Positions 16,121 to 48,637 of a stretch of 64,000 nt of DNA are shown here, one piece after another. Origin of the DNA: a virus; IMG/VR virus record IMGVR_UViG_3300037516_001783, positions 1-64,000 of that record. One strand, 5' to 3'. Below the pieces are notes generated by a model. That model saw only the letters and a list, made by a program, of their open reading frames with translations. It searched no databases and was not told where the DNA came from. Both the position numbers and the translations under genes were made by a program. Positions within the stretch are counted from its first letter, which is position 1; the number at the start of each line of letters is the position of its first letter.

Positions 16121-17012
16121 AATTGAATAACAGCGAAATCCTCTCTTTTATCAAATTGACTTTAGCAATTGAATCTGGAGCAAGTGGCAATACACCTGAA
16201 ATTGGGTCTAATACTTTGATTGCCAGAATCTCTGTAACTAAATCACCAAAAAGTTTTGCAAAATCTTCCTTCTTATTTTTAATACTTACATTCTCTTTTG
16301 CTACAGTAATTGAAGTAGATTCAGTTTCAAGTTTAACTCCAGATTCAGACATTGAAACCTTATTTTTAAATTGGTCTTGGATTGATAAATTTCCGTCACC
16401 ATCTATACTTATGATACTTTGCTTACCTTTCTTACCAACTTTGATATCAAGTGTTCCAGGAGTCTTTAAATTCACTGATTTTTCAGCATTAACATTTAAG
16501 TCTCCTTGTACATCTAAATCAAATTCAGCTTCATTTGTGTCATTACAAATTTTTAAAAATGACTTTTCACCTTTTTTATTAGAATTACAAACAAGTCTGA
16601 ATGTTCCACCCTTACCTGATAAATCAAAGTCAACAAAATTTGAAAAACTTTCCTTAAAAATTCTAAATTGCCTTTCTTCTAAAATGATAGGTTGTTCATC
16701 TTCAGTTTGTAAAATACAAACAACTTTTGACTTTCTGTAAAGTGTGTCCCTCACGCAGAATACAGCTGTACCTACCTCTCCAAACTGAGAAGGAAATTCT
16801 ATGTAATGTATAGAACCTTTGTCAATTTGAACATTCTTTTCTATTTGATTGTCAACACTTTTAATCATCAAAGTGCCCTTTTTAAAACAATCTTTTATAT
16901 ACTTTGTTCTATCGACATCTAATGGTATAATAACATGTCCTGTGAAGGCTACGTACTCATTAACTCCGTATCCCTTTTTACCTATTGTTTTTGAGTTATC
17001 ATTCATCATCAC
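16119..17012 (-). CDS. Baseplate central spike (gpV/gp5-like)
   Basis: N-terminal OB-like region (EFP...G.AV), C-terminal beta-helix-like repeats; follows the hub gene. Confidence 0.6.
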   Translation of the reverse strand: MMMNDNSKTIGKKGYGVNEYVAFTGHVIIPLDVDRTKYIKDCFKKGTLMIKSVDNQIEKNVQIDKGSIHYIEFPSQFGEVGTAVFCVRDTLYRKSKVVCILQTEDEQPIILEERQFRIFKESFSNFVDFDLSGKGGTFRLVCNSNKKGEKSFLKICNDTNEAEFDLDVQGDLNVNAEKSVNLKTPGTLDIKVGKKGKQSIISIDGDGNLSIQDQFKNKVSMSESGVKLETESTSITVAKENVSIKNKKEDFAKLFGDLVTEILAIKVLDPISGVLPLAPDSIAKVNLIKERISLLFN

Positions 17013-27039: not shown

Positions 27040-27714
27040 CTAATAACTTGACGCTTGAGGATTTACTTCAAACATTTTCACCAATTTGTGTCTCATAACT
27101 TCAGATACTGTACTTTCATAGAAGAAACTTACTGATATGTTTCTGTTGTAGACATTCTGTGGTAACAAATCAGTGTTCAGTTGTAAATCTTGACCAGAAA
27201 TCTTTGGTTGTCTTAAACCCATATTTTCAAAATGTTCAAATATAGCAAACATGAAATTTTTCAAAACATGGTAAATTAAAACAACTTCAGAACTGTTATC
27301 TGAAGTGATTAACATATTGTAATTTGAATCAAAAACATTTGTGAAATTTCTTTTGTATTCACCTTCATCTCCAAAAATGTTATACTGTTTATAACCTTCA
27401 CCCATACCTATGCCAACCTCACCACTAGTTTCAGAAGGTAGTAAAATATGAATTGTTGGTAATCCTTTTCTTTCTGTATTGTATCCTACATTAACAGTCA
27501 ACTTCCTAGATTCATCTTCATTTTTCAAGAATAAATTTTTACCTTGTTCATAGTAACTAAATTTATTCATTGTTATTTCCATACCATTGTCATCTTGAAA
27601 AAGGAACTCATGTAATACAGAATTCTTTTCATCTGCTTGACTTTCGAAATCAGATTTTATTAAATCTAAAATAGTCTTTACTGTATAGTGTAATATTACT
27701 TCTGGAATTAACAT
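27040..27714 (-). CDS. Tail terminator / neck protein
   Basis: P.IHILLPSE, I.S.N..EV..IY..LK, Y.RNI motifs; position before the sheath. Confidence 0.6.
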   Translation of the reverse strand: MLIPEVILHYTVKTILDLIKSDFESQADEKNSVLHEFLFQDDNGMEITMNKFSYYEQGKNLFLKNEDESRKLTVNVGYNTERKGLPTIHILLPSETSGEVGIGMGEGYKQYNIFGDEGEYKRNFTNVFDSNYNMLITSDNSSEVVLIYHVLKNFMFAIFEHFENMGLRQPKISGQDLQLNTDLLPQNVYNRNISVSFFYESTVSEVMRHKLVKMFEVNPQASSY

Positions 27715-28133
27715 AATAAATTATTAAAGGCTTTTTCTAATTGTGAAAATATGGTTGACATATGCTTATCATCTTCATGATAAGATTCTTTATTAGCAAT
27801 GTTTGTTTTTGAAAAGTTTATATTAAACTGATGTATCCTATCTAATCTAAACAATCTCCAATACGGTACTGCTTGGCTCTTACTTACACCTTCATTTAGG
27901 TATGCTCTCAGAATCAAATTTTCAGTACTTCTGTGAATACCGAAAGCCACAGGAGTTATACTTCTATAACCGTTAAGAACTACTCCAGCATCTTCATTTT
28001 CTTCATATAAAATATCCATTTTGAACTTATTATTAATACAATAATTTATTGTATCGTTTAAATTCATAATGTTTTTAATCCTTGGTAATCTCTTAATCCT
28101 TACATTACCAGATATGTCTTTAAATCTACTCAT
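27708..28133 (-). CDS. Stand-alone WYL-domain protein with a C-terminal EKAFNNLL tag
   Basis: I.Y ... R.I.P.AFG ... LRAY ... WRLFRLDRI is the WYL signature. Confidence 0.8.
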   Translation of the reverse strand: MSRFKDISGNVRIKRLPRIKNIMNLNDTINYCINNKFKMDILYEENEDAGVVLNGYRSITPVAFGIHRSTENLILRAYLNEGVSKSQAVPYWRLFRLDRIHQFNINFSKTNIANKESYHEDDKHMSTIFSQLEKAFNNLLC

Positions 28134-31486: not shown

Positions 31487-32974
31487 TTAAACACCTACGT
31501 TGATATATCTTACGATACGTTTTGGAGCGTATAATAAAGGAGTACCATACAACATAATCATGAAACGATATGCTGGTGAGATGATAGCTAAATCCATTTT
31601 CATCAGAGGAGCTAATTGAGCAAACTCAAAAGTTTCTGAATCATTTTGAATCAACAACGCATTAGCAGTTGAAGGAAGGATTCTGTTCTTATCTCTAACA
31701 ACGTTAGCACCTGTACCGTCAAATCCTGTACCTAACTCTGCAGTAGAGATTTGGAATAAAGGATAGAAAGTTGCGTTAGCACCACCACCTGTAGTAGCAC
31801 CTTTGTTAGAACGATAGATAGTGAAACCTGTAGCTGGATTTGGGTCAGAAACAGCAGCAGTGAATTTCAAGTCGATTGAAGAACCAGCAACAGCAGCAAC
31901 AACAGTACTACTTAAAGCAGTTAAAGCAGACTCACCAAATCTGTTTACAGAAGCTACAGCGTATAAATAGTTTCCTGCATCAGCAGATACCCATTTAGAA
32001 GTTGCGTCAGTATTTACAGCGATAGGAGTAGTACCATCAACAACAATTGGAAGAGGTGCTTTTGTATCAGTCGCAGATTCAGCCAATGTTCTTGGTTTCT
32101 CTGGGTTCATGAATACATCCCACTCCAATTTGATTGGACCATATTGAGATTGGAAAGTTTGAACAGCTTGACCAACTTCACCAGCACGAACAGCATCAGA
32201 GTTGATAGGAATGAATTTGTTACCGTAGAAACTAGCAACGAATTTCGAAAGAACTGCTGGAGGAGCAATTAAGTGAGTAGCAACACCGTAGTTTTCAACG
32301 ATAGCTTCAGCACCCCTTTCAATGTAAACCTCAGTAAGTGGGGCACCTCTTAAGTCAACAACAACTTCTGAGTTGTAATATTGGTCTTTAGTTGAAAACA
32401 AATCGTTTTGAGCATGCTGAGCATACAAACCGTTGAATTCAGTAGGGATGATTGCAGAGTTACCTCTTGTTAATGCTTTGTTTACTTTACGTAAAATCCA
32501 AAGAGTACCGTTTTTCACTTCTCTTTCTACGATATTACCAACTGAAGCTTGAGTATTTACAAGACTCATTGGGTGAGTAACTGATTTAGTTACACCGTAG
32601 AACTTAACTAATTGAGAACGTCTGATGTAAGTTGAGTCCTCATTTGATGGTAACTCACCTTCTAACAATGAACCTCCTCTGTCGTTACCATAAGAAGCTA
32701 ATTGGTTAAACTCCTCAACTGTATTGTAAGCAGTTTTCTTTGGTATCATTTTCCAAAGTTTGATGTTACTTTCAGAGAAAGTAATAACTTTTAAAGTTTT
32801 GTCTAAAGACTCAACTTTCAAAGCAGCACCACCTGCAGTTGTAGAGTTAGCAGTATCACGACCTGTGATAGCCTGAGCATCCAAAGCTTTGTTCAAGTTT
32901 TGTAACTCTTCCATTGAAGCTCCATTTCCTGAAAAAACTTCGTTTGGCAAATAATCGTTTATGTTAATATTCAT
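31487..32974 (-). CDS. Major capsid protein (Herelleviridae Cps-like)
   Basis: GGAALKVESLD, EEFNQ...G, EG.LP...D....R....VK, EFNGL, QLAPLMKMDLA, YG...LYAPK; likely maturation site LNK|A at residues 27-30. Confidence 0.92.
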   Translation of the reverse strand: MNININDYLPNEVFSGNGASMEELQNLNKALDAQAITGRDTANSTTAGGAALKVESLDKTLKVITFSESNIKLWKMIPKKTAYNTVEEFNQLASYGNDRGGSLLEGELPSNEDSTYIRRSQLVKFYGVTKSVTHPMSLVNTQASVGNIVEREVKNGTLWILRKVNKALTRGNSAIIPTEFNGLYAQHAQNDLFSTKDQYYNSEVVVDLRGAPLTEVYIERGAEAIVENYGVATHLIAPPAVLSKFVASFYGNKFIPINSDAVRAGEVGQAVQTFQSQYGPIKLEWDVFMNPEKPRTLAESATDTKAPLPIVVDGTTPIAVNTDATSKWVSADAGNYLYAVASVNRFGESALTALSSTVVAAVAGSSIDLKFTAAVSDPNPATGFTIYRSNKGATTGGGANATFYPLFQISTAELGTGFDGTGANVVRDKNRILPSTANALLIQNDSETFEFAQLAPLMKMDLAIISPAYRFMIMLYGTPLLYAPKRIVRYINVGV

Positions 32975-32990: not shown

Positions 32991-34604
32991 TTATTGTAAA
33001 GTTATTCCTTTTTCCATTCTCAATCTTTGTAACACAGATTGACTAATTTTACCTCCAGTCTCAAAAGAAGTTAAAGCTTCAGAGAACTCTAAATCAACTT
33101 CACCTTTGTGGAAAGTAGCTTTGTCTAAGATATCCAAAACAAGCCTTCTATTTGTTAAACTAATAACATTAGAATCGCCACCCTTTTGAATGTCATTGTT
33201 AGGAACTTGACCACCGAAGTTTCTTTCTCTAACAGTTGATTGAGGGATAGACTTTCTTGTTATTGGTTGACTGTCAAATGATTTTGATAAATCACTGATA
33301 GTATCTCTTAAACCATTAAATGAAAGTTCAGTAGAATCTAAAGATTTCTTTAATTCACTATCTGCAGATTGAATTGCATCAATTTTTTCAGACAATGAAG
33401 ATAAATCTTTGTACATATTTTTCAGTATGACACCGATATGATGATTCTTCTCAGTAACTAAGGTAGAAATGTCAGAAATTGCTTTTAACAAAGGGTCTTC
33501 TTTTGTTTCAACTTCTTCCTTAACAATTAAACCTTTTTCTATTAATTCTTTCTCTAATTCAGCAAGTCTTAACTTTTCAGAATTAAAAGATTTAACAATA
33601 GAATCGTCATTACTTTCAATAACATCAGAATCTAAAGCCTTATCTAAAAGGTCGATAGCTTCTGAAATTGTTTTTTTAGTAATATTTTCACCTTTTTGCA
33701 TTGCACACTTTTCGATAAAGTTATAAAGCTTCTCAGCTTCTAACAGAGTTATAGCTGTTTTTTTAGTGAATATTTCTTCGTAACAACTTGCTTTTGACAT
33801 TTTATCTTCATCAAGCAAATCTAAATCGATTTCTTCATCTTCACCTTCCTCCTCTTCATTTTCTTCCTCCTCTTCTTCAACTTCACCTTTGTCTAAAATA
33901 ACTTCCTTACCATTAGCAGTTTGAAAGTCATTTTTCATTTTAGGTTTTTTCTTAGAAGGTTTTTTGAAGCTTTCAAGTTTCAGAGCATCACCTTGTCCTG
34001 GAATAGCAACATCTGTAGTTTCAGTCCCTGTTGTAACACCAGCAGAAAGGTCTTTCATTAACAGTTCAGTTTCATCGTCATATTCGTCTGAATAATCATC
34101 ATCACAACCACCCTTAATTAAATCCATATAAGTCTTAGGATTCTTAGGCATAAATGTGATAGCACATCCTGTAATCATCGCTTTTTTGATAATCTTAGGA
34201 TTAACTAAATCTCTGTCAATAGCTTTTCCCTCTATTGAAAAACCAAGATTTCTTGTAGACGAATTTTTCTTTAATGAAGTTGCTGTATTGTAAACTGCTT
34301 GAGCGATAGGATTGTCTGGATATAAGAATCCTTCAATGTACAACCCTTCTTTTGTAATCCTAGCTACTGTTGGTTCACCAATGATAGCATTTGGGTCATT
34401 TTTAGCTTGATGGTGGTAGTTTAAGAAACCACTCTTAAGGAAATATGAAACGTCGAAACCATTTGGGTCTAAAAATTCTCCATCTGCATCTTCAGCATTT
34501 GTAGAAGCTATACCACCAACTTTCATTACTTCATTACCTTTGTCATCCTTACCTTTGACAATGTCATCAAGTGGAACCCAAAACTTAAAATTCTTTTCTG
34601 GCAT
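32991..34604 (-). CDS. Prohead protease fused to an acidic/coiled-coil scaffold
   Basis: GIAST...D.DGE, LNYHHQ, IGEP, LGFSIEG, AIT..P.NP.T; long C-terminal region with a poly-E tract. Confidence 0.9.
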   Translation of the reverse strand: MPEKNFKFWVPLDDIVKGKDDKGNEVMKVGGIASTNAEDADGEFLDPNGFDVSYFLKSGFLNYHHQAKNDPNAIIGEPTVARITKEGLYIEGFLYPDNPIAQAVYNTATSLKKNSSTRNLGFSIEGKAIDRDLVNPKIIKKAMITGCAITFMPKNPKTYMDLIKGGCDDDYSDEYDDETELLMKDLSAGVTTGTETTDVAIPGQGDALKLESFKKPSKKKPKMKNDFQTANGKEVILDKGEVEEEEEENEEEEGEDEEIDLDLLDEDKMSKASCYEEIFTKKTAITLLEAEKLYNFIEKCAMQKGENITKKTISEAIDLLDKALDSDVIESNDDSIVKSFNSEKLRLAELEKELIEKGLIVKEEVETKEDPLLKAISDISTLVTEKNHHIGVILKNMYKDLSSLSEKIDAIQSADSELKKSLDSTELSFNGLRDTISDLSKSFDSQPITRKSIPQSTVRERNFGGQVPNNDIQKGGDSNVISLTNRRLVLDILDKATFHKGEVDLEFSEALTSFETGGKISQSVLQRLRMEKGITLQ

Positions 34605-34670
34605 AATTTGTATGTTTAACTTGTATCATCATGTTATTGTAATAACAGTTTATGTCTTTGAAAATAAAAG

Positions 34671-34679
34671 ATAACTGTT
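34671..34679 (-). promoter_or_regulatory. Candidate late promoter AACAGTTAT
   Basis: Lies between the terminator at 34703-34738 and the protease ATG. Confidence 0.55.
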
Positions 34680-34702
34680 TGAACTGTTTCTTATATAAAA
34701 CA

Positions 34703-34738
34703 AAAATCCCCTTAGTATATTTCACCTAAGGGGATTTT
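34703..34738 (-). terminator. Intrinsic terminator ending the cargo cluster
   Basis: AAAATCCCCTTAG ... CTAAGGGGATTTT inverted repeat. Confidence 0.75.
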
Positions 34739-34847
34739 AAATTTATTATGTTTTTATATTTTATCTATTCGCAACACGATTATGTAAATCATGTATTTCT
34801 TTCAACTTTTCATCAGAAGGTTCTTGATTTGTTTGGTGTATGACCAA

Positions 34848-35702
34848 TTACTTTATCATCTTTTCATTAGTTTCATATTCTTCAGACTTTTCATCTTTTT
34901 TAGGTTTCATAACCTTACCATCCTCATCTTTGATTTTAAAATCACTAAATCCTCCAAGTTCATCTGCGATTGCTTTAGCACTTCTTGACTCTCCTTTTTT
35001 ATTTACCCAATGACCTTCACCCTTACATGTGTAAGAATAACCACCACCTGAAACAACACTTCCTCTACCAGCTTCCAACAATTGGTCTTTTATTTTTTCA
35101 TAATGACCTTTCACTTGCACCTCACCTTTAGATTGTTCTTTTACACCTTCTGGTTTATGAAAATCTACTTTTAAAGGAGATTTATCGTGTCTCTTACCAT
35201 TCTTATCTTTTAACTGTAGATAACCATCATGTTTGATGTTATGAATGGTATGTTCTTCACCTTTGTAGTTTATTTTATCTCCAGGAATTACTTCTCTTAA
35301 ATGTTCTTTTTCATCTTGGTGAGGAGTTCCAGGTTTTTTCCAAACAACTTGGTGATTACCTTTCTTATTGATTATATGGGTCAACACCAACCCATTTCCA
35401 CCGTGGAAAGCTTTTTCAATAAAAGAGTGTAAAGCCTTTTCTATCTCAGACTTTTCTTCTTCCTCTTCGTCAAGTTCTTCACCCTCTTCACTTTCCTCTT
35501 CCTCAGATTCAACTTGTTTTTTACCACCTTTCAAAAGTTCGATAGTCTTCAAAGATTTTTGTAAATCCTCTTCTGTTATCAAACCTTTGTCAAAATTACT
35601 CTTTAAAGTAATTTCCATTTCCTCAAATGAAGGTTGTTTTTTAGAAAAACTTTTTTCTAAAACAGTCCCTTTATAATTATCCTCAGTTACAAAATTATAC
35701 AT
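34848..35702 (-). CDS. Putative internal head protein (leader A + acidic tract + shared hairpin/SH3-like module)
   Basis: Residues 1-60 are paralogous to the 323-aa protein; residues ~87-185 are nearly identical to part of the 423-aa protein. Confidence 0.65.
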   Translation of the reverse strand: MYNFVTEDNYKGTVLEKSFSKKQPSFEEMEITLKSNFDKGLITEEDLQKSLKTIELLKGGKKQVESEEEESEEGEELDEEEEEKSEIEKALHSFIEKAFHGGNGLVLTHIINKKGNHQVVWKKPGTPHQDEKEHLREVIPGDKINYKGEEHTIHNIKHDGYLQLKDKNGKRHDKSPLKVDFHKPEGVKEQSKGEVQVKGHYEKIKDQLLEAGRGSVVSGGGYSYTCKGEGHWVNKKGESRSAKAIADELGGFSDFKIKDEDGKVMKPKKDEKSEEYETNEKMIK

Positions 35703-35723
35703 ATAGCAGTCTTTATTTTCTTA

Positions 35724-35903
35724 TTAGTTGTTTTTCTTCTTACCTTTGTAAGATTCATAGATTGAATTAAAAACATAAGCACCAACCCAATAAATAAAAG
35801 CTACAATAAATAGCCAAGGTTGTTTTTCTGTTGTTAAACCTGTGATATACAAGATTGTAGCCAATGCAAAAATTGCCACAGTAATGATTGAATGTTTAAG
35901 CAT
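35724..35903 (-). CDS. Small 2-TM membrane protein (59 aa, below the ORF-track cutoff)
   Basis: Hand translation: MLKHSIITVAIFALATILYITGLTTEKQPWLFIVAFIYWVGAYVFNSIYESYKGKKKNN. Confidence 0.55.
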   Translation of the reverse strand: MLKHSIITVAIFALATILYITGLTTEKQPWLFIVAFIYWVGAYVFNSIYESYKGKKKNN

Positions 35904-36271
35904 ATAAGTATAATTAATAGTGAAATTCTTACTTGAAATTGATAAGGAATCATACTCCAGAATGTATCTATTGGTCCACTTCCTAAATGTTCTTTTGGTT
36001 TACCTCTTAAGTAATTTAGTAATGTATCAAATAGAAAACCGTATGACAATAATAATGATATGAATAACAAAAGATTGTAAGGTTTTACACTATTTGTTAC
36101 AACAATACAAATAGAAACAGTCAACCATGAAGTTGCTACTTTGTACTTTCCCTTTAAATCTATTTCATGTTCTTCTATAAGTAGGTAGTCACAAAATGCT
36201 CTACCTACTATAAAAAGAATGAAGCAACCTAAATTTAGGAATAAGTGTAATATGATATGAAGTGTTTGCAT
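35834..36271 (-). CDS. Multi-pass membrane protein
   Basis: About four hydrophobic segments; FD.LLN.LRGK...HLG...ID motif. Confidence 0.6.
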   Translation of the reverse strand: MQTLHIILHLFLNLGCFILFIVGRAFCDYLLIEEHEIDLKGKYKVATSWLTVSICIVVTNSVKPYNLLLFISLLLSYGFLFDTLLNYLRGKPKEHLGSGPIDTFWSMIPYQFQVRISLLIILICLNIQSLLWQFLHWLQSCISQV

Positions 36272-37501
36272 TTACTCTTTAGTTGGTAATTTGAAAATCA
36301 TTTCAAGGTCAGTAGTTCTACCTTTCCCACCCTTATCATCTTGCCATTCATAAACTTCACCTCTACCTTTAGAATCCAAGGTAGCACCAAACATTTCTTT
36401 CATAACATTCTCTATTTTAGAGAGGTCATTACCTTTAGGTCTACTCCAAGAATCAGATTGGTCTGATATTCTTAATTTTATATTATCACCTTCAACTGAA
36501 ACTCTACCCCAAGGGTCACCATTAGATTCATATTTATGTTGAGACAATCCAGCACGAATTATTCTTTCTGCTGCCCTATCACCACCTAATTGAATAGCTT
36601 CATCCAAAGCTTCTTTTGTTACAGGTTCACCATGGTCAACTCTGTGTTTATCAAATAATTTTTCTAACTTCTGTTTCTTTTCAATTTCAGGGTCAGGTTT
36701 TTCTAATTTTTTAGATTGTTGTTTTTGGTAATCTTCTATAGAAAGGAATGAGCCAAAATATGCATCACTATCCATTTTTCTGTATTCATTTACAGAACCA
36801 TCATTGTTGTAAACTCTTACAACTTTAAGGTCACCAAGACCACCACTTTGTGTTTTTACAGAAACAAGTTGTCCCTTTTTTAATTGAATAACACCTGTCT
36901 CACCTTTACCTCCATTTAGTGGTGCTGTACTCCATTTGAAATCAACATCTTTAGTTAATATTCTTGGGCTGTAATCATATTTGTTGAAAGCAACATCTCT
37001 CATTGCTCTGTCAATAGCAACTTGGTTAGGTTCAACAGATTCTACTTTAGGAGTTACACTTTCTACAGATTCTTTTCCATCTTCATCATGACCAACTAAC
37101 TCATCTTCTTCAACTTCCTTACCTTTAACATCCTCAGGTTTTTGGAACTCAACTTTTAAAGGTGATTTATCATGACGTTTTCCGTTTTTATCTTTTAACT
37201 GAAGGTAACCGTCGTGTTTTACAGCATGAACTGTATGTTCTTCACCCTTATAATTGATTTTGTCTCCTGGAAGCACTTCTCTCAAGTGTTCCTTTTCGTC
37301 ATGATGTACACCACCAACTTTTTTCCAAACAACTTGATGTTTGTTATTTTTGTTAATAATGTGCGTAAGGACTAATCCGTCCCCACCATGAAAAGCTTTT
37401 TCTATAAATGAGTGTAAAGCTTTTTCAATATTTTTATCTGAATTGATAATATTATCACCAATAGGTGAATTATCGTAGTGTTCTGGTGTGATGATTTCCA
37501 T
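36272..37501 (-). CDS. Putative internal head protein (shared hairpin/SH3-like module + unique C-terminus)
   Basis: Probable ATG 37501 (MEIITPEHY); IEKALHSFIEKAFHGG...VVWKK...PGDKINYKGEEH...HDKSPLKV. Confidence 0.65.
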   Translation of the reverse strand: MEIITPEHYDNSPIGDNIINSDKNIEKALHSFIEKAFHGGDGLVLTHIINKNNKHQVVWKKVGGVHHDEKEHLREVLPGDKINYKGEEHTVHAVKHDGYLQLKDKNGKRHDKSPLKVEFQKPEDVKGKEVEEDELVGHDEDGKESVESVTPKVESVEPNQVAIDRAMRDVAFNKYDYSPRILTKDVDFKWSTAPLNGGKGETGVIQLKKGQLVSVKTQSGGLGDLKVVRVYNNDGSVNEYRKMDSDAYFGSFLSIEDYQKQQSKKLEKPDPEIEKKQKLEKLFDKHRVDHGEPVTKEALDEAIQLGGDRAAERIIRAGLSQHKYESNGDPWGRVSVEGDNIKLRISDQSDSWSRPKGNDLSKIENVMKEMFGATLDSKGRGEVYEWQDDKGGKGRTTDLEMIFKLPTKE

Positions 37502-37527
37502 GGTGAATTTTGGTGATTTAAAATAAA

Positions 37528-37567
37528 AAACAACAACTAACAATTCAAACTATGTTAGTTGTTGTTT
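37528..37567 (-). terminator. Intrinsic terminator
   Basis: AAACAACAACTAACA ... TGTTAGTTGTTGTTT 15-bp inverted repeat. Confidence 0.7.
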
Positions 37568-37574
37568 AATTTTA

Positions 37575-38546
37575 TTAAGCAAATTTTTTGAAATCTAAAC
37601 CGTGGTGTTTTGCTAATTTCTTAGCTTTATCCCAATGAAATTTTGATTTAGCTTTTGAATCATGGTCAGTTTCACCGTAATTCTCTTTATGTGCTTCAGC
37701 ATTATCAGCATGGTTATATGAATGGTTGACATGGGATTCAATTAATTCAGAAGCCTTTTCTTTAGACAAAGATTTTTCCTCATCAGATGGTTCTGTTTTA
37801 GAATCCATTTCTTTCTTCTTATTTGAAGCAGTTTCTTTTGTTTTAGAAATTTGTTCTGGTGTTTGAGACTGACTCTTTTTCTCCTTATTTTTGATAGTCA
37901 TTGCTTTTCTCCAATGGTTATCAGCAGCATCATATAATTTTTGATATTCTGGTGAGTGGCGAGAATGTTCTCCAAATTTAGATTCCATTTCCTTCATTTT
38001 ATCTTCATTCACTTTCTGAGCATCAAGATGGTCTTGTGATGAAAAGTCACTATGGTTTTTTGAAGAAACAGAGTCATAAACATCCTTACCACTTGCTGTT
38101 TTACCTAATTTATTAGTACCAACTTTTCCACCTTCATGGCTTGCTTTAATTTTTTCAAGAGTTTCTTGTCTATCTTTTTTACCTATTTCGTAATGTTTTT
38201 CAAGATGTTTTGAAGCTTCTTCATTTGAATGGTTTCTTCCGTGTGCACCGAAAGCATCATCATGGTCTTTTGAAGTAAAATTAGCATGACTTGGGTGATT
38301 AAACTTATCATAAATTGGTTTACCACTTTTTGTGTGACCAATTACTTTACCACCTCTTGAACCTTCACCACCTTTTAACAAATCAATTGTTTCTAAGGCT
38401 TTGTTGAATTCCTCTTCAGTGATTAATCCTTTTTCAAAATTACTTTTAACAGTAATTTCCATTTCTTGAAAAGTTGGTTGTTTTTTTACAAAACTTTTTT
38501 CCAACACACTACCTCTATAATCTGCTTCTGTTACAAAATTATCCAT
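37575..38546 (-). CDS. Putative internal head protein (leader A + two His-rich G-x-T-x-S-G-K repeats)
   Basis: KVIGHTKSGKPIY..HANFTSKDHDDA and KLGKTASGKDVY..HSDFSSQDHLDA. Confidence 0.65.
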   Translation of the reverse strand: MDNFVTEADYRGSVLEKSFVKKQPTFQEMEITVKSNFEKGLITEEEFNKALETIDLLKGGEGSRGGKVIGHTKSGKPIYDKFNHPSHANFTSKDHDDAFGAHGRNHSNEEASKHLEKHYEIGKKDRQETLEKIKASHEGGKVGTNKLGKTASGKDVYDSVSSKNHSDFSSQDHLDAQKVNEDKMKEMESKFGEHSRHSPEYQKLYDAADNHWRKAMTIKNKEKKSQSQTPEQISKTKETASNKKKEMDSKTEPSDEEKSLSKEKASELIESHVNHSYNHADNAEAHKENYGETDHDSKAKSKFHWDKAKKLAKHHGLDFKKFA

Positions 38547-38551
38547 TGTTA

Positions 38552-38989
38552 TTAATTTATATTTGAAAACTGCTTAGACATTATTGAACCATCCCTTATG
38601 ATTTGCTGTAATAAAGTACTTTCTCTAGGAGTTGTCGGTACTTTCCCATTAGAATTAGCTTTATCTATCAAATTAGTGATAAAATTCTTTGATTCTACCT
38701 GATAAACTCGTCCTCTTAAACCTTTTAAGTATTCTAATGAATATTCTTTACCAACACCATTAAATACTTTCCCCTCACTCTTTTTACAGTTCACACAAGA
38801 TTTATTACATTTGAAGTTTGCTATTAACTTTTCAATCTCACGATTTTCGTTAATACAATCTCTAATTAAATCTAATATGTTATGGTCTTTTGAGGACTTA
38901 TTTTCTTGAATATAATTGTTGTTAAATAACAACCTATCTTGAAGTTCTTTTTTAGACAAACTTTCAAGTGTAAAAAGAGAAACTTGCAT
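38552..38989 (-). CDS. Hypothetical protein in the head-cargo cluster
   Basis: ORF track; CNKSCVNCKKS motif. Confidence 0.5.
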   Translation of the reverse strand: MQVSLFTLESLSKKELQDRLLFNNNYIQENKSSKDHNILDLIRDCINENREIEKLIANFKCNKSCVNCKKSEGKVFNGVGKEYSLEYLKGLRGRVYQVESKNFITNLIDKANSNGKVPTTPRESTLLQQIIRDGSIMSKQFSNIN

Positions 38990-41116: not shown

Positions 41117-43171
41117 TTATTTAAAATTTATATCGTCTTCAATTACACCACCTAATAAATAATCAAATGCCTTTTTGATATTCACTTTCTTTAAACTCTC
41201 AGCATAATAATCTTTCCAATCTTCATATTGGTCTTGAGTTTCTTTTGGTAAATTTCCGAAAGTCATTTTTGCTTCTTTTATGTTACCTAAAGTTCTAACT
41301 TGTAAATCAGATTCTGGTAAGTTCTTTTGGTTCTTAACTAAAACGTCATACAACTCTTTGTTTTGTTCAAAGTTGTCATATCCGTCTCTTAATTTACCAT
41401 CCAACATTGTAGACATAGCATACAGCATTTGTTTTTTATCCAAATCTATATGTATAGGTTTACTTCTACCTTTAAGAGCAGCAGAGTCTTGGCTATCATC
41501 CAAACCTTTATTTGTAATGAAGTTTAACTTACCATGGAAATCAAATTCGTCTGGAATATCTTTAACATTTTCACCTGTTAAATCGGCTATCTTCTTTTTG
41601 AAAGTTGGTGTTATTGTTATCTTTGGAGTTTTACCTTCAAAGTTCTTAAGTAAGTTAATTGTTTTAGGATTAAACAACATACTATCACTGTCATCGAATG
41701 AAAGTAATGTTTTAGAACCCTCTTGTCCTCTATATTTATACAGATATGCAAGGAAATCACCGTAATTGAATCCCGTACCTTTCAATTCAACATAAGAACC
41801 GTTTGGATGCTCTTCTGGGTCGTAAGGTTGGTCTTTATTTATTTTGTCATAACCAAGTTCTCCCAATGCAGCTTTTTCTACATTGTATGATTTACCAACT
41901 CCTGCTTTACCACTAATTATTGTCATTAATTTAGGACTTTCGTCACTCATTAATGTTTTAATACTACCGATAATAGAATGAGCTGTTGAAGTGATTTCTC
42001 TTTTTTGATTATCGTCTAATCCTATACTTTGGTCACCGTTCCAACCAGCACCTGTTTTTGGATTATACTCACCATCCTTTAACTTTTGGATACCAAGTTT
42101 CTTTTTCTCGTCTTCAGAAAGTTTGGAAACGTCTACTTTTTCAGGTTTCTTAGTTTCTTCTTTAACCTTATCACTTTTCGGTTTTTCAGTTTTATCTTCA
42201 GAACCTTCTTTTGGATTTTCAGGTTTACTATCACCTTCTCCTTCAGCACGTTTATCATCAGGTTTAGAATCTTCTGTTTTATTATCAGCTTTTTTGTCAC
42301 CTTCCTTATTTTTATAAGGGTTTCGGTCATCTTCAGAATTTATGTATTCCTCACCTCTTTTAGCTAACTCTTTTTTTGCTGAATCAACTAAAATTCTTGC
42401 CTTTGGATTGTCATGTTCTTTGTCTAAAAAATTCTTTAAATCTTCAGTAGATGACTTTTTAGCATGAGATTCAACTTTTTTGTTATCCTGATAGATAGAA
42501 TGATAATCGTAATCAGAACTCTTGCCCTTTGGATTTTCAACCTTCTTATTAGACGGTTCGTTTGCATTATTATCTTCTTGTTTTGTGGTTTTAACTTCTG
42601 ATTGATTATCGTCATTTTTGACCCACTTTTTCATGTGTCTACCTAGCTTATCAACGATATCTTTGATATGTAGCTTACTCATGTTTAAACCCTTATTAAA
42701 CTCATCTGAATATGGGTTTGGTTGGGTTAAACTTGTAATGCTTTTTTCTAAATCTCTTTGATTAACAAAATCAAAATAATGGCTTAAAATTTCACCTTGA
42801 TTATCTAAGAAGTCAAATTCAGTTAAATCGTCATCACAAATAAGTTCATATTTATCATGTTCAAAATTTAGTATAGCAGATTCAACATCATACTCACCTT
42901 CATTTCTAACTAAAAAGTAATTAACTTCAAAATCTTCTTCACCGTTGTTTTCAATTGTTTTAAACAACAAAGAAATATCATTAGACTTTACATCTATTGA
43001 TATTTCTTCTTTTAATTCTCTTATTGCAGTTTCTATAGGCTCTTCACCGTCTTCAACTAAACCTCCTGGAAGGTTCCAACATAAATCTCCATAAGTTGCT
43101 GTAAAACTCCTTCTTAAAATAAGTACATTGGAATCCCAATCTGGTAAAATGGCTACAGAATATACGTTCAT
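41117..43171 (-). CDS. Nudix hydrolase - disordered linker - AAA+ ATPase fusion (putative head cargo)
   Basis: Nudix box PGGLVEDGEEPIETAIRELKEE; Walker A SGKAGVGKS; Walker B LSFDDSD; ITN; AALKGRS arginine finger; C-terminal IKKAFDYLL; probable ATG 43171. Confidence 0.8.
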   Translation of the reverse strand: MNVYSVAILPDWDSNVLILRRSFTATYGDLCWNLPGGLVEDGEEPIETAIRELKEEISIDVKSNDISLLFKTIENNGEEDFEVNYFLVRNEGEYDVESAILNFEHDKYELICDDDLTEFDFLDNQGEILSHYFDFVNQRDLEKSITSLTQPNPYSDEFNKGLNMSKLHIKDIVDKLGRHMKKWVKNDDNQSEVKTTKQEDNNANEPSNKKVENPKGKSSDYDYHSIYQDNKKVESHAKKSSTEDLKNFLDKEHDNPKARILVDSAKKELAKRGEEYINSEDDRNPYKNKEGDKKADNKTEDSKPDDKRAEGEGDSKPENPKEGSEDKTEKPKSDKVKEETKKPEKVDVSKLSEDEKKKLGIQKLKDGEYNPKTGAGWNGDQSIGLDDNQKREITSTAHSIIGSIKTLMSDESPKLMTIISGKAGVGKSYNVEKAALGELGYDKINKDQPYDPEEHPNGSYVELKGTGFNYGDFLAYLYKYRGQEGSKTLLSFDDSDSMLFNPKTINLLKNFEGKTPKITITPTFKKKIADLTGENVKDIPDEFDFHGKLNFITNKGLDDSQDSAALKGRSKPIHIDLDKKQMLYAMSTMLDGKLRDGYDNFEQNKELYDVLVKNQKNLPESDLQVRTLGNIKEAKMTFGNLPKETQDQYEDWKDYYAESLKKVNIKKAFDYLLGGVIEDDINFK

Positions 43172-43196
43172 TGTTTTATAAAATAACAATAAAAAT

Positions 43197-43429: not shown

Positions 43430-44833
43430 TTAATCTAAATTAAGTTTTTCTTTTGATAACAATTTTTCAAAAGTTTTTCTTTGAATATCATTTGTTAAGT
43501 CTAACTCACCGTCCCAACTTGAACCTGAATTTTTAAAGAAAACATTTTGTTCATGTTTGTTTAATTTTTTAGCTAAAGATTTCAACATGTACCTGTCTCC
43601 AACTTTGTCTAATTCAATTGTACTAACACTGTTATTTATTTTGTCAAGTTGATGTTCAGTTGGGTGGAAATATATTTCATATTTGAATTTTATTTTATCA
43701 CCAACTTGTTTACTATCACCTATCCTTGTTACTTTATAATTAAAACTATCCTCTTCAGAAGGTACATAAGTATCTGAATCTTGATAGTCAAGTTCGTCTT
43801 GGAAAGTATCACCACTCAAATCAGCAGTTTTAACAACCCCATCTTTTGAAATGTACTTAATTTCAGGTTTTTCACCTACCTTATGTTCACAGAAACCTCT
43901 GGCAATTAAAGTTGGTTTTATAGAACCTGAATCATTACTTTTAACAACATATCTGATGAAATTTTCTCTCATCCTTTTAACGTCACTTTCTGAAGCTGAG
44001 AAACCCCAATTCCCCCAAACAGACACACCTGTAAGCACTTCACTTTGTGTTTGTGAATTTGCTTGTACTGAAATTTTCTTAACTCCTAACTCCTTGTATT
44101 TGTCATAAAAGTTAGACATTAACTTTCTAGCAAAGTCAGTATTTCTAAGTGTTTCAGAACAACCAAAACTTGAGTGGTAAACAGAACCATCTGGTCTAAT
44201 TACTCTTGAAATCTGAAAATGTTTTGGTTGGCTAAAACCAAACTCATCAGTTGAAGCAGAATCCTCAGACATGTGAACTCTTATTGTTCCGTCAGAATCA
44301 CAAAAGAACCTTTTGTCAGAAACATTTCTTCCATTAGTGTTAGGAATGTAACTATCTATCAATTCATTACAACCTTTATAAAGGTCTGCTATATCATGAC
44401 CTTCCCAATGTTTGTTAAAATTGTTAATAGAAGTTTGGTCTGATTCAACCCTTACATTTTTTAACTTCTCTAATGTAAGTTCTGGTTTTTTAACACCGTA
44501 AGCTTCATCTGTAATTCTATCAACTTGCTTTAACACTTCTTCCTTTTTAAATTGGAAGCTGTTACCTTTCTCAACCTGTTTTAATGAATGTGATATTACA
44601 GATTGCTGGTGAAAATATTCAGCTTTTTTCAATAACTTTTTAGCCAATTCTTTTTCAGTTGAAGATAACATTTTATCTTCATTTACAGCATTAATATCTC
44701 TAATTTTTACATAAATTATGTGAGAATTTTTATCAAGTTTTTGTTGATATTCAGGATTCCCCTTCTTATGTATATTTTGTAATCCACCTTTGACAATTAC
44801 ACTGTCAAAGGCTTTTTTCAATTCATCTTGCAT
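43430..44833 (-). CDS. Putative head cargo with a GNAT-like acetyltransferase domain
   Basis: N-terminal ELKKAFDSVIVKG; VYHSSF....LRNTDFARKLM...Y.ELGVKKISVQA...G..VW..WGF resembles a GNAT fold. Confidence 0.55.
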   Translation of the reverse strand: MQDELKKAFDSVIVKGGLQNIHKKGNPEYQQKLDKNSHIIYVKIRDINAVNEDKMLSSTEKELAKKLLKKAEYFHQQSVISHSLKQVEKGNSFQFKKEEVLKQVDRITDEAYGVKKPELTLEKLKNVRVESDQTSINNFNKHWEGHDIADLYKGCNELIDSYIPNTNGRNVSDKRFFCDSDGTIRVHMSEDSASTDEFGFSQPKHFQISRVIRPDGSVYHSSFGCSETLRNTDFARKLMSNFYDKYKELGVKKISVQANSQTQSEVLTGVSVWGNWGFSASESDVKRMRENFIRYVVKSNDSGSIKPTLIARGFCEHKVGEKPEIKYISKDGVVKTADLSGDTFQDELDYQDSDTYVPSEEDSFNYKVTRIGDSKQVGDKIKFKYEIYFHPTEHQLDKINNSVSTIELDKVGDRYMLKSLAKKLNKHEQNVFFKNSGSSWDGELDLTNDIQRKTFEKLLSKEKLNLD

Positions 44834-44834
44834 A

Positions 44835-47057
44835 TTATAATATTAATGAGTTAAATGCTTTTTCTATATCAACGTCTACAATGAATAAACTTCCCGAATC
44901 CAATGATTTCATTAATTTTTTAACAACATTTTCTTCGTTACCATTTTCACTCCTAAAGAAGTGCATACATTTAATAACACCTTCTTCGTTCTTGTAAGAA
45001 TTCTTAATTTTGTCTATGTTTTTAGCCATAAAATTAAGAGCATCTTTGTATTCACTGTAAGTGTAGTTCTGTCCTTTTAGGTTTGTAAATCCAATACCTA
45101 ATTGTTCTCTTTTATTTATAAGATATTTAGAACGCTCTATAAAGGTATCAGGAGTTTCCTTTATATTTGCTAACATACTTCTTGATTGAATTGGCTGTGG
45201 AGCATTATCTAATGAAGAAGTGATAAAAACACACTTACCTTTGAATTGGAATTTTTCTGGTAAGTCGTTTGGGTGAGTTATGCTTTTTGGGTCAACCTTT
45301 CCAGACTCTTCGTCAGTTTCATATTTCCAACCACCTTGTCTAAGAGCGTCACCATAAGCACCGTTATCTTCAAAGTCAGAAGGTTTAAAATCAGGTTTAT
45401 AACGACCTGTATTAACACTTGTCAACCAAGCAACTTCACCATCACCAGATGTATCTAATGCTCCTTTTAACAAACCTTGACCAAGATTGCTTTCTAAAAC
45501 CTTATCAGCAGAGTTGTCAAAAACAATTGTCTTAAAGTTATGTTTAAACAAAGTTTCGTATAATGATTTCTCTGTTAAACCACCTCCTGCTGAGGAAATA
45601 ACAACATATTGATTACTTACAGGTTCCTCACCATCTTCAGGTTCGTATTCTAAGTTTTGTTGTTTCTGTAATGTACAAACTTCATGAGAATTTTGCATAC
45701 CTTTTTGTTTTAAGTAGGTAGTAACATTATTCGCATTTGTATCAGCAACAACAGCACATTTAACTTGGTTTCCTGTTACCATATCTAAAGAGTTGTAAAA
45801 CGAATCAAAGTTTTCAACTATAGACATTTCAGGCTTATCTTTCAATAAAATCTTATCAGCTTCAACCTCCCATTTCATCCCCTTTTTAGAGAAGAAATCT
45901 CTGATAGCATTACACTTTGTTAAAGTTCTACCACTTAACTCCTCTAAATTTCTCCAATTTTTAGCAAAGTAATTAGCAATACTTTCTTTCTCCTCATCTG
46001 TAACTTCTACTTTATTACCTAATGCGTCTTGGAATTTTAGAGAACTGTTAATCTTACCATAATTAGGATTCTCGATTCCGTTAATCATTTTCCTACCATC
46101 ATGTAAGATTTTATCATTTAACAGGTCCCAAGTTTCCTTTTTAGTTAATCGTAAGTTTAAGTTATCAGAATTTGTTAAAATCCTTTGGAAATTTTCAGCT
46201 TTTGGTCCATGTTTTTCAGCTTGTTTATCTAAATTCACATTAGATATTAACATAACACTACCATCGAAGTCAAATCTTGGAGGAACACCATCAGAAGTTT
46301 TCTCATGTACATTACCACTTTTAGGGTTTGTAAGAGTTACACTTCCTGTGTTAGAAGATATTGAGGTTAAAATATTCAACATGGCTGGGTCATCAAAAAC
46401 CATATCAAAATCATCCAAAATAATCTTCTTATCTTTATTGTTATAAAGCATTTCAAAGAAACCTCCGGGAGTTGTACCACCTGTGAACTTTACAACATCA
46501 CCATTTTCAAGACCTTCTTTGATTTTTGTATTTTGTAATACAGTAAAAGTTTTACCAACACCACCTGAACCTGAAGCAATAGAAAGTCTAAGAGATTTAT
46601 CATCAGCAAAATTTGATACCATTTTCTCCCACTCAATCATCCTTTCAGCTGGAGAGCCATAAATATCATAATCTAAACCACCTTCATCTTCATCAGAAAC
46701 AACTTTTTTCTCACTTGGTTTAACTTCACCTTCTGGTGTAATTGGTGCACTACCTTCACCGTCATGAGGGAATACTAATTTGTTAGGTGATTTGTCATGA
46801 CGTCTTCCTGTTTGGTCTTTCAACTTAACATATCCGTCATCTTTAACACCAACAATTGTATGTTCTTCACCGTTGTATAAAGCAACATCACCTTCTTTAA
46901 CATGTAAATGTTCGTCAGTAACTTCATCCTTTTTTACCCAAGTTAATCTCTTGTGGATTCCATGAGCACCATGAACAAGTATAAATTTTGGAACCAACTT
47001 ACCACCGTGTGATAAGTCTGCAGCCTTCTCTATGTCTGTTTCTAAATTATTTAACAT
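44835..47057 (-). CDS. Putative head cargo: SH3-like module + tandem AAA+ domains (second degenerate)
   Basis: DIEKA at the N-terminus; EGD...YNGEEH...DGY..LKD..G.RHDKSP; SGSGGVGKT, IILDDFD, FDFDGSVMLISN; second unit LYETLF..IVFD..LLKGALD..FQFKGKCVFIT..IQSRS; C-terminal DIEKAFNSLIL. Confidence 0.75.
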   Translation of the reverse strand: MLNNLETDIEKAADLSHGGKLVPKFILVHGAHGIHKRLTWVKKDEVTDEHLHVKEGDVALYNGEEHTIVGVKDDGYVKLKDQTGRRHDKSPNKLVFPHDGEGSAPITPEGEVKPSEKKVVSDEDEGGLDYDIYGSPAERMIEWEKMVSNFADDKSLRLSIASGSGGVGKTFTVLQNTKIKEGLENGDVVKFTGGTTPGGFFEMLYNNKDKKIILDDFDMVFDDPAMLNILTSISSNTGSVTLTNPKSGNVHEKTSDGVPPRFDFDGSVMLISNVNLDKQAEKHGPKAENFQRILTNSDNLNLRLTKKETWDLLNDKILHDGRKMINGIENPNYGKINSSLKFQDALGNKVEVTDEEKESIANYFAKNWRNLEELSGRTLTKCNAIRDFFSKKGMKWEVEADKILLKDKPEMSIVENFDSFYNSLDMVTGNQVKCAVVADTNANNVTTYLKQKGMQNSHEVCTLQKQQNLEYEPEDGEEPVSNQYVVISSAGGGLTEKSLYETLFKHNFKTIVFDNSADKVLESNLGQGLLKGALDTSGDGEVAWLTSVNTGRYKPDFKPSDFEDNGAYGDALRQGGWKYETDEESGKVDPKSITHPNDLPEKFQFKGKCVFITSSLDNAPQPIQSRSMLANIKETPDTFIERSKYLINKREQLGIGFTNLKGQNYTYSEYKDALNFMAKNIDKIKNSYKNEEGVIKCMHFFRSENGNEENVVKKLMKSLDSGSLFIVDVDIEKAFNSLIL

Positions 47058-47071
47058 TACCTTATATTTTA

Positions 47072-48637
47072 TTATTCAAACGGATTCTCACTATCATCTG
47101 TTGGCATATCAGAATAATCTTCTTCACCATCTTCAGGTTGTACTTCACCACCTTCTTGTTCACCACCCATACCCATTTGTTGTGCAGCCATTTTGAATTG
47201 TGAGTAAGTACTTGACATAACATTATCTGCAGCTGGGTCTTTAATTTTTGGATAACCAAGTTCTTCTCTAACTTCATTTAAAGTTGCAAAGTTGGTTACT
47301 TTCTTAACTGCCATATCCAATTCCTCTGACTGACTTAATGCATCTATTCCAACGAACGATAAATAATAATCCTTATCTAATTGGTTTACCACATATTTAT
47401 TTAGTCTGGAAGCTATGAATTTTAAAAGTGGGTATAAACCTTTGTCCTTACTATGTTTTAATTTACCTTCATTATTACTTTCAAATAATGCTCTGTTTTC
47501 AGCTCCACCACTTTGTGAGAAACCTATTTCTTCTGGAGATATACAGTAAATTGCACAAGCTGTTTTGATAAGGTAATCTTGCCAAGCCTTAAACTCCATG
47601 TCTTTATTGGCAGTTTGAAGGTTGATGAATTCCATCTTTCCAGCTTCCATAACAGGAGTCTTCCAAGCATTATGAACTCCAGAAACCATTGCTTGCCACT
47701 GTTGTTTAAATTCTTGGATTTTTGCTGGTGAAACTGAACCGTCTACACGAATAATACCTTTAGGTGCTGAACCTTGTGAGAAGAATCTTCTGTTATACTC
47801 ATCTGACCATAACATAGAAGTTATTGTTGTTACAAGTTCTTCAAGTTCTGAAACTCCGTAACCAAAATTATGAATATCACTTTCTGGATTTCTAACACCA
47901 AAACATAATTCCCAAGGATAAAAATCTGCTACAACCTGACCATTGTCTACTTGACAAAATGACGGATAATAACCTTTGATTTTTTCTTTGTTTTGGTTTT
48001 GATAACTATCATCATCAACACTATCAGATATCCTAAAAGTAGATGCGTCTGTGGCAATGAATTCTATTGGTAAACCTTTTCTGTTGTAAATAACCTCAAA
48101 AGTCAATTGGTCAAAAACTAATGAATCTCTTGTTACTTTTCTTATGAAACTGTCAAAATCATCTGCTTCCCAAGAGTTGTTTGTACCACAATTCAAAATA
48201 AATTGCGTTATTTCATCAACCCTAGCTTGTTCTGCTTTTGTTAATTTTGAGTTTTCCTTACCTCTTTTTAAAATCTTAAATCCTGTACTGAATTTATCCT
48301 TCTGAGGTTCAGCAAATGCGGCAACTTGATTTACCCTTGTCTTAATAATAGCACTAATAACAGGAACTCTTGCCATACGTTTTAAATTGTCGTATGACAT
48401 CCCCATAGCTTTATCCTTGTAACCTAAAGAAGTTGCAAAATCTAATGGGTCAATTAATATAGATTTTCTATCAGAAAGTTCTCTGTTCTCTATGTATTTA
48501 CTTGCGATTGCTTGTGCTTTTACTAACTCATTTGGGTCTGTAGAAGATAGTGCACTGCCAACCAAAGACATTTTCTTAGCTAATATCTTTTCCTCTAAAG
48601 TATTTAAGATGTTTATTTTTTCTATTCTACCCATCAC
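47072..48637 (-). CDS. Portal protein (Herelleviridae-like)
   Basis: AII.TR.NQV..F, RD.L..DQ..FE, VRNP..D....GYG.SELE, YN.RFFSQG..PKGI, DMEF..W..YLI...CAIY.I.P.EI, SK.KGL.PLL.FI, T.NE.R. Confidence 0.92.
   Translation of the reverse strand: MMGRIEKINILNTLEEKILAKKMSLVGSALSSTDPNELVKAQAIASKYIENRELSDRKSILIDPLDFATSLGYKDKAMGMSYDNLKRMARVPVISAIIKTRVNQVAAFAEPQKDKFSTGFKILKRGKENSKLTKAEQARVDEITQFILNCGTNNSWEADDFDSFIRKVTRDSLVFDQLTFEVIYNRKGLPIEFIATDASTFRISDSVDDDSYQNQNKEKIKGYYPSFCQVDNGQVVADFYPWELCFGVRNPESDIHNFGYGVSELEELVTTITSMLWSDEYNRRFFSQGSAPKGIIRVDGSVSPAKIQEFKQQWQAMVSGVHNAWKTPVMEAGKMEFINLQTANKDMEFKAWQDYLIKTACAIYCISPEEIGFSQSGGAENRALFESNNEGKLKHSKDKGLYPLLKFIASRLNKYVVNQLDKDYYLSFVGIDALSQSEELDMAVKKVTNFATLNEVREELGYPKIKDPAADNVMSSTYSQFKMAAQQMGMGGEQEGGEVQPEDGEEDYSDMPTDDSENPFE

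Follow-up and report, generated by a model that had tools for sequence, protein, structure and literature searches.

The first 64,000 nucleotides of IMG/VR record IMGVR_UViG_3300037516_001783 (full length 107,935 bp, GC ~31%), referred to here as the window, contain several genes whose products share blocks of sequence in different combinations. These genes raise the question of how the combinations arose and what the shared blocks do. A sequence-only reading had proposed that one gene, g284, was visibly pieced together from its neighbours g323 and g423, with a leader, an SH3/KOW-like module and a payload recombining as cassettes. That the three parts recombine as cassettes is borne out by relatives and by a sister strain at the g423 locus, and not by g284 itself. 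The genes g284, g323, g423 and g740, together with a module gene at the record end, appear to form one small family built from three separable parts. The features concerned are as follows, a downward arrow marking a candidate cleavage position.

34848-35702, minus strand: g284, 284 aa; long leader, acidic linker, short tag, beta module and small C-domain
35523-35702, minus strand: g284 leader, residues 1-60, helical, ending in LLKGG; homologous to the g323 leader
35445-35522, minus strand: g284 acidic linker, residues 61-86, within a 37-aa insertion relative to other family members (alignment A3)
35148-35444, minus strand: g284 short tag (IEKALHSFIEKAFHGG) and beta module, residues 87-185; 78-84% aa identity to g423
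34929-35114, minus strand: g284 C-terminal small alpha/beta domain (SGGGYS..HW..FSDFK), residues ~197-258
36272-37543, minus strand: g423, short leader, module and 270-aa payload (open reading frame list, BLASTP)
37133-37429, minus strand: g423 module copy, residues 39-137
37575-38546, minus strand: g323, long leader (residues 1-60, 38367-38546) and His/Lys-rich payload, module-free
44835-47057, minus strand: g740, 11-aa leader (..DIEK↓A), diverged module, P-loop ATPase and C-terminal KAF tag
46752-47057, minus strand: g740 module, residues 1-102; the ATPase belongs to phrog_1250 and is T4 NrdC.10-like
34695-34746, minus strand: terminator-like hairpin 3' of g284 (inverted repeat I4, then a T-run on the coding strand)
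37514-37581, minus strand: terminator-like hairpin 3' of g323 (inverted repeat I2)
37110-37120, no strand: recombination breakpoint relative to strain L013, at the module end (...KPEDVKG)

The start of g423 is probably the ATG at 37501 (Met15) and not the listed TTG at 37543, because the TTG lies inside a terminator-like hairpin and the protein Atlas record starts at residue 15.

Exchange of leader, module and payload

The leader, module and payload are separable cassettes with separate histories, and the parts move INDEPENDENTLY. Between near-identical strains, the payload is replaced at the 3' edge of the module. In L013, a 2.2-kb contig of a strain with 97.7% DNA identity to the window, identity per 100 nt amounts to 96-100% from 39081 to 37183 and then falls below 50%, and the BLASTN alignment stops at 37116, which corresponds to residue ~142 of g423, right after the module. 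The g145b and g323 proteins of the two strains agree at 99% aa (g323 at 99.4%), and neither this genome nor the collected family contains a homologue of the alternative L013 payload.

Leader and module DNA is also copied or converted between distant paralogues. The genes for P0013 and P0010 are separated by 33 kb of a 114-kb contig; homology between them at the DNA level sets in with the ATG, runs at 96% over 300 nt and at ~80% to nt 480, and is random thereafter. The DNA upstream of the two genes is unrelated, the homology being confined to leader and module. As a separate observation, repeats of ~80-110 nt (88-96% identical) occur on both sides of P0013 and P0010 (L010 9851-9955 and 11388-11495; L011 11039-11148 and 20692-20768; L012 1167-1282) and may be regulatory or recombination elements. 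No repeated intergenic elements like these flanks were found around g284 or in the window's genome.

Other combinations of leader and payload, for which the sequence-only reading had pointed to related genomes, were found in L007, L013, P0010/P0013 and P0004/P0005. L007, a syntenic 19.6-kb contig of a related phage, carries the leader on three proteins, of 581 aa (with the module and a leucine-rich repeat (LRR)-like tail), 227 aa and 139 aa (with DUF5661), and the module on two, a 779-aa ATPase and the 581-aa protein. P0021 corresponds to the 139-aa leader-DUF5661 protein plus a 51-aa cassette placed exactly after LLKGG, and this cassette (residues 66-116) has a G-E-I-R-E-W..G-K-K-Y motif, as have three head-block proteins of Chryseobacterium phage MA9V-3. 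P0004 and P0005 are ~96% identical and differ by cassette indels of 81 and 133 aa with Pro/Lys-rich linkers at the edges. In nine relatives (P0004-6, P0008-11, P0013 and P0014), a homologous long leader passes directly into the module via ...[IV]-x-K-A-G. At least five different payload types follow the leader across relatives, and the module is preceded by a long leader, a short leader or a different 170-aa N-terminus. The payloads of the family appear to comprise an ATPase, DUF5661, an LRR-like domain and others that are unclassified. The three MA9V-3 (L006) proteins, encoded in its portal-protease block (13272-14834, 15076-15522 and 16189-17826), share this motif of the P0021 cassette in the form G-x-R-x-F/W-x-G-[RK]-[EK]-Y-I/K..W-K, directly after L-x-K-[AG].

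A maximum likelihood tree of 18 modules showed that the copies mostly cluster by genome, with supports of 96/93 for g284 and g423, 92/96 for these two with P0002 and P0003, and 95/92 for the two modules of L007 with P0016. In approximately unbiased (AU) tests, a single clade was rejected for ATPase-linked modules (p 0.002) and for long-leader-linked modules (p 9e-6), and co-inheritance of the module with either the payload or the leader is therefore rejected, although it counts against this result that the groups, set by architecture, were named after inspection of the tree, and that it rests on a short alignment with some long branches.

The family is rare. The module profile matched only 18 proteins among 1.84 billion representatives, and the leader profile only 13 among 5.8 billion proteins. 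Neither tblastn of g284 nor a DNA search with window positions 34600-38600 gave a match in 50,697 phage records, and no isolated phage among them carries the leader or the module. Pattern scans of IMG/VR with the window-only alignments of module and leader (A1 and A2) found nothing; the broader alignment A3 found L007. Leader and module are absent from the stretches of MA9V-3 and DAC19 that were examined. In Pfam and PHROGs, g284, g323, g423, g444 and g467 gave only weak sub-threshold matches, and the payloads of relatives had no Pfam match except DUF5661 (P0020/21). For the payloads of g423 and g323, the protein Atlas offered no usable lead (TM <0.5, feature score 0.75).

Within this genome, the shared blocks were delimited by BLASTP with composition correction. 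Residues 1-60 of g284 and g323 are identical at 44 of 60 positions (73% aa, E 2e-27) and no similarity extends past residue 60; a leader common to both proteins up to LLKGG, as first described, is thus real and far above chance. Residues 87-202 of g284 match residues 39-154 of g423 (91/116 identical, 78% aa, E 4e-60). The similarity of the two modules is real, but "nearly identical" was too strong a description of copies that agree at 78-84% in aa and 72-75% in nt. A more distant copy in g740 was confirmed, with 55% identity between residues 130-186 of g284 and 48-102 of g740 (E 1e-13) and 44% between residues 43-141 of g423 and 5-102 of g740 (E ~1e-13). A DNA repeat search recovered the same blocks, the module at 35138-35437 and 37123-37422 (300 nt, 75%) and the leader at 35520-35702 and 38364-38546 (183 nt, 77%). 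Across the whole record, a hidden Markov model of the module found exactly four copies and that of the leader two; the fourth module copy, at 106881-107933, is cut by the record end, and its full form is P0002 with 403 aa.

The junctions had been placed at predicted K-[AG] cleavage sites, and this placement stands for the N-terminal ones. At residues 60 (LLKGG) and 87 (IEKA) of g284, windowed aa identity drops from 60-100% to 0-12% within ~8 codons, and the P0021 insertion lies after LLKGG. It does not stand for the junctions between module and payload: at the 3' edge of the module in g284 (after ...HKPE), similarity fades step by step between residues 185 and 208, and no K-[AG] site marks this edge.

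Age of the copies and architecture of g284

Judged from synonymous change, the copies of leader and module in the window are old and under purifying selection, because synonymous sites are saturated and long identical tracts are lacking. The proportion of synonymous differences (pS) is 0.66 for the leader and 0.90-0.91 for the module, at nonsynonymous proportions (pN) of 0.09-0.14; third-position identity is 53% for the leader and 42% for the module, against a composition expectation of 32-34%, and the longest identical runs are 15 nt in the leader and 18 nt in the module copies. The comparison of synonymous divergence between module copies thus gave no sign of anything recent.

Residues 5-272 of g284 are collinear with residues 3-243 of P0013, a protein of another phage (33%, E 7e-38), the post-module domain included. 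The C-domain of g284 is homologous to the post-module segment of P0013, and its match to P0010 is weaker. As this collinearity and the leader-module alignment of further relatives indicate, leader, module and C-domain form the standard architecture of the family, of which g284 is the local representative. The description of g284 as a visible or recent chimera is not upheld, given the saturated synonymous sites, the lack of long identical tracts and the conservation of its architecture in P0013. On the same alignments, the likeness of g284 to g323 and g423 is best described as old copying within the lineage, and the data are compatible with copying from g284 to its neighbours or in the reverse direction.

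The 37-aa insert that is specific to g284 consists of the acidic linker and the short tag IEKALHSFIEKAFHGG, and the relatives are without it. This tag is similar to the final helix of the long leader (FNKALETIDLLKGG), and short tags of the same type precede the module in g423, P0002, P0003, g740, P0007 and P0015. The doubled tag appears to be the single feature of g284 that favours a fusion. An assembly of g284 from its neighbours, with a g323-like leader, a g423-like tag and module and crossovers at LLKGG and IEKA, would account for it, and for several further observations: the g284 leader is closest to that of g323 (73%, versus 28-45% for all other leaders), its module is closest to that of g423 (84%, versus 40-48% for the modules of long-leader relatives), only g284 combines a long leader with the tag that leaderless copies typically have, placed beyond the acidic linker, and long-leader modules are rejected as a clade by the AU test. 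However, such an assembly is unlikely. The order of leader, module and C-domain is the same in P0013 of another phage, so this combination predates the lineage; dS is saturated and long identical tracts are absent; and the same identities would follow from copying out of g284 or from gene conversion in one direction or the other.

An origin without any cassette exchange, by whole-gene duplication in which constrained N-termini were kept while payloads diverged beyond recognition, is highly improbable: saturated dS means that the sharp edges within the window alone could be edges of selective constraint, but divergence cannot yield a strain that is 96-100% identical up to 37183 and random past 37116, the 96% nt identity of P0010 and P0013 is limited to the stretch between the ATG and the module end, the payloads are unlike in length and fold class, and vertical co-inheritance is rejected by the AU tests.

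Head-gene setting and candidate role as capsid cargo

The window represents the region for head morphogenesis in an uncultured phage of myovirus-like type, with 130 of 135 open reading frames on the minus strand. PHROGs identified a portal, a head-maturation protease fused to a scaffold-like region, and a major capsid protein (MCP).

47072-48637, minus strand: portal protein (phrog_12 at 1e-55), upstream boundary of the head block
32991-34604, minus strand: prohead protease (aa 1-162) and scaffold fusion, 537 aa (phrog_1028 at 4e-47)
31487-32974, minus strand: MCP (phrog_752), candidate maturation site NLNK↓ALDA at residue 30
27708-28133, 41117-43189, 43430-44833, 44835-47057 and 14368-15294: carriers of the KAF tag described below

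Between portal and protease lie 12 genes, g740, g690, g323, g423 and g284 among them, and the order of head genes is syntenic in L007, MA9V-3 and the 114-kb contig. The MCPs nearest to that of the window are those of the Bacteroides phages DAC16-23 (46%) and of MA9V-3 (42%), followed by SPO1-like Bacillus phages, and the match to SPO1 Gp6.1 (PDB 9vel) has an E of 7e-75. The g740-type ATPase member always adjoins the portal gene; the orthologues of g740 are P0015 (49%), P0007 (42%) and the 779-aa protein of L007.

In this setting, the family members are probably capsid-addressed, protease-processed cargo proteins, analogous to the internal proteins of T4 that are tagged with a capsid-targeting sequence (CTS). 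The head context, the shared addresses, the enrichment of [LIVMF]-x-K-[AG], the homology at the MCP site and the T4 precedent all point to this cargo role. The address would be the ~60-aa helical leader or a ~12-aa helical tag, phi-x-K-A-[LF]-x-x-phi-phi-x-K-[AG], which may bind the core of scaffold and protease or the interior of the shell and guide the protein into the assembling procapsid. The prohead protease would cut after the K of [LIV]-x-K-[AG], releasing a mature cargo that starts with the beta module, and the recurring short tag may also serve as the joining point for new combinations at the N-terminus.

Across the 15 genes that span MCP to portal, the motif [LIVMF]-x-K-[AG] is present 44 times, versus 17.4 +/- 4.0 in shuffled sequences (2.5-fold), and the count is 15 versus 3.0 +/- 1.8 when an acidic residue is required at -4. 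In the remaining 120 genes the motif is not enriched (78 versus 67 +/- 9). Sites near the N-terminus include K30 of the MCP, K11 of g740, K15 of g467, K26 of g175 and K41 of g444. The protease-scaffold protein has 13 such sites, and one of them, DLIK↓GG, lies at the joint of its domains and coincides with the end of an open reading frame in L007. The MCP site NLNK↓ALDA aligns with ..LNK↓ALEA of SPO1 Gp6.1 and is conserved in L007, MA9V-3 and DAC19, and it also aligns with ..LSK↓SF of the phi812/K type. For the MCP of phi812, PDB has a precursor chain of 463 aa (5lii) and another chain of 439 aa (9row), at an offset of 24, and in the K-like phage SapYZU04 the position matching the 9row N-terminus comes after ...K-L-S-K. 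The chain lengths of phi812 and the SapYZU04 sequence, which place the mature N-terminus of the MCP after ..LSK, support cleavage after Lys by this protease clade. The literature held nothing usable on a published cleavage site of SPO1 Gp6.1 or of Herelleviridae proteases.

A second motif, the KAF tag K-A-[FL]-[DNHQE]-x-phi-phi, occurs eight times in the genome versus 0.31 expected, and five of the eight occurrences lie within 18 residues of a protein N- or C-terminus. Both g740 and a 141-aa protein (27708-28133) encoded 7 kb off the head block carry it at their extreme C-terminus, and g690 has it close to its C-terminus; in g467 and a 308-aa protein it is N-terminal.

Several points weigh against the cargo role. 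Binding to core or shell, cleavage, packaging and ejection are steps that we infer from sequence and analogy, in an uncultured phage. The enrichment of the motif could reflect, in part, the helical, K/E-rich composition of scaffold-like proteins, and the mature N-terminus of the phi812 MCP is a deduction from deposited chain lengths and a related phage. The junction between module and payload is off the K-[AG] sites, and the leaders of P0025-29 end in ..SLQG, not ..LLKG, without a Lys. In addition, the fourth module copy, at ~107 kb, is outside the head block, and P0013 and P0010 are located at ~13 and ~46 kb of their contig, the head block of which is at ~64-76 kb.

A bolder version of the cargo role, put forward here tentatively and to be taken as doubtful, is that a two-part portable label loads an open-ended, strain-variable set of effectors into the capsid for co-injection, payloads being swapped at the module boundary. 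The label would consist of a cleavable helical tag usable at either terminus and a retained SH3-like module. In such a capsid-based polymorphic effector delivery, the retained basic barrel would perhaps tether the cargo to DNA, so that the cargo would leave with the genome.

The structure of g284 was predicted with AlphaFold2 from a 20-row alignment (mean predicted local distance difference test, pLDDT, 77.6). In the model, the leader forms helices at residues 26-38 and 44-66, the tag forms the end of a helix at 78-100, residues 106-181 consist entirely of beta structure (pLDDT >90), and a small alpha/beta domain occupies residues 197-258. The module comprises ~85 aa, is basic and ends in a predicted SH3/Tudor-like barrel: residues 139-185 form a small beta-barrel with VIA Z-scores of 5-6.3 to Tudor, KOW and SH3 domains. 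Its best matches, PHF19 Tudor, DSIF KOW and NusG KOW (Z 5.9-6.3, root-mean-square deviation 1.3-3.1), fall in the range of common arrangements. Foldseek gave no PDB match at E <= 1e-3, and no Pfam KOW or SH3 family matched g284, g423 or the N-terminus of g740 at E <= 0.1. The label SH3/KOW-like fits the predicted fold, but as a generic match it is silent on function. The leader resembles SHOCT (PF09851) weakly: the best match is 19.7 bits (g323, E 7e-4), below the gathering cutoff of 27, and only two of five leaders match at E <= 1, so this is a resemblance only.

These folds invite a different explanation, in which leader and module are a cytoplasmic interaction or oligomerisation unit, a SHOCT-like helical hairpin with an SH3/Tudor-like barrel binding nucleic acid or protein, that brings diverse effectors to a common host or phage target. 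It draws on the sub-cutoff SHOCT match of the leader core, on the frequent binding of nucleic acids or peptides by SH3/Tudor/KOW-like barrels, on the basic module and on family members scattered beyond the head block. Nevertheless, it is quite improbable, as the enrichment of [LIV]-x-K-[AG] is specific to the head block, this motif is present also at the MCP site and the protease-scaffold joint, the conserved ATPase member stands constantly beside the portal gene, and the same tag occurs at the extreme termini of unrelated proteins.

Known systems and neighbouring genes

The capsid cargo role has its precedent in phage T4, in which N-terminal propeptides of 10-19 residues direct otherwise unrelated proteins, the internal proteins IPI-III and Alt, to the scaffolding core, after which the prohead protease cuts the propeptides off (PMC9026906). 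It has been proposed that the CTS serves, in evolution, as a means to load a variety of proteins, and Alt is also processed C-terminally (PMC9026906). The phage described here resembles T4 in its shared leader or tag, its candidate protease site at the end of the address, the tags at either terminus and the variable payloads; the leader is common to g284, g323 and three L007 proteins, and the short tag to g423, g740, P0002 and g467. It differs in lacking any sequence relationship to the T4 system, in its 60-aa leader and in its candidate motif [LIV]-x-K↓[AG], whereas the sites of the T4 prohead protease are glutamate-based. Moreover, the mature protein would retain a conserved beta module as an extra part, and packaging is only inferred. 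No PHROG or Pfam family that would indicate homology to T4 internal proteins or the CTS matches g284, g323 or g423.

In giant phages (SPN3US, phiKZ-like), many proteins inside the head are reported to have a common motif at which the prohead protease cuts them, and paralogous families are found among the head genes (PMC5694885, PMC7411985, PMC10052503). These phages differ from the present one in lineage, protease motif and genome size (108 kb here), and the Pfam and PHROG scans revealed no homologous domains.

The comparison with polymorphic toxin loci made in the sequence-only reading holds for the logic of a constant N-terminus and a variable C-terminus, and not for content. Like polymorphic toxins and polyvalent proteins (PMC5512222), the family has a constant N-terminal region with exchanged C-terminal cassettes, and its payloads are replaced between near-identical strains. 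However, Pfam detected no toxin, immunity or secretion-system (type V, VI or VII; T5SS/T6SS/T7SS) domains in the payloads, and in the gene list g284, g323 and g423 are not consistently followed by a small partner gene. Polyvalent proteins carry 2-15 conflict domains per polypeptide, often with MuF or LPD domains (Iyer et al. 2017), whereas here the payloads are on separate genes encoding 139-790 aa, and Pfam found no MuF or LPD domains, only NUDIX (g690) and DUF5661 (P0020/21). SPO1-like Herelleviridae share a homologous MCP (Gp6.1), the protease family phrog_1028 and the MCP site L-N-K↓A-L, but have no cargo family with this leader or module, as searched by tblastn over the 50,697 phage records.

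Addressing of cargo by cleavable propeptides and mosaicism of phage genes are already known. What is new is the family of leader or tag and module, absent from Pfam, PHROGs and all isolated phages searched, as are the clean strain-level replacement of a payload and the extra conserved barrel predicted to persist on the mature protein. If the proteins are capsid cargo, the family would provide a compact, sequence-defined address by which injected effectors could be recognised in uncultured Bacteroidota-type phages, in which nearly all genes are annotated as "hypothetical". The replacement of payloads between strains at a constant boundary would then imply a fast turnover of injected repertoires, as anti-defence functions would predict, and the family would represent a non-T4 system in which to test the selection of cargo by HK97-type procapsids. 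Pfam and PHROGs cover neither the leader nor the module, nor the payloads.

Some observations concern the surroundings of the family. Both ends of the record truncate genes, a DEAD-box-like helicase (1-900, minus strand) and the fourth module gene (106881-107935, minus strand), no terminal repeat is present, and the same protein set occurs on a 108,472-bp contig; the record is therefore probably slightly incomplete despite a completeness estimate of 100%. For the protease-scaffold protein, a sequence search gave no solved structural relative. Protease and scaffold form a single 537-aa open reading frame in the window and in MA9V-3 and two in L007 and DAC19, those of L007 (13462-14286 and 14331-15080) being split at a conserved D-[LI]-I-K-G-G site. 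The product of g690 (41117-43189) combines a NUDIX hydrolase with a P-loop ATPase of phrog_1250, the family of the g740 ATPase, and an F-N-K↓G site divides the NUDIX part from the remainder. By tblastn, the phrog_1250 ATPases of g740 and g690 are tied to T4-type NrdC.10 proteins in more than 1,000 phage records. Finally, g145a (35834-36271), wedged between g423 and g284, encodes a multi-pass membrane-like protein, and the portal gene of MA9V-3 is likewise adjoined by genes for small hydrophobic proteins.

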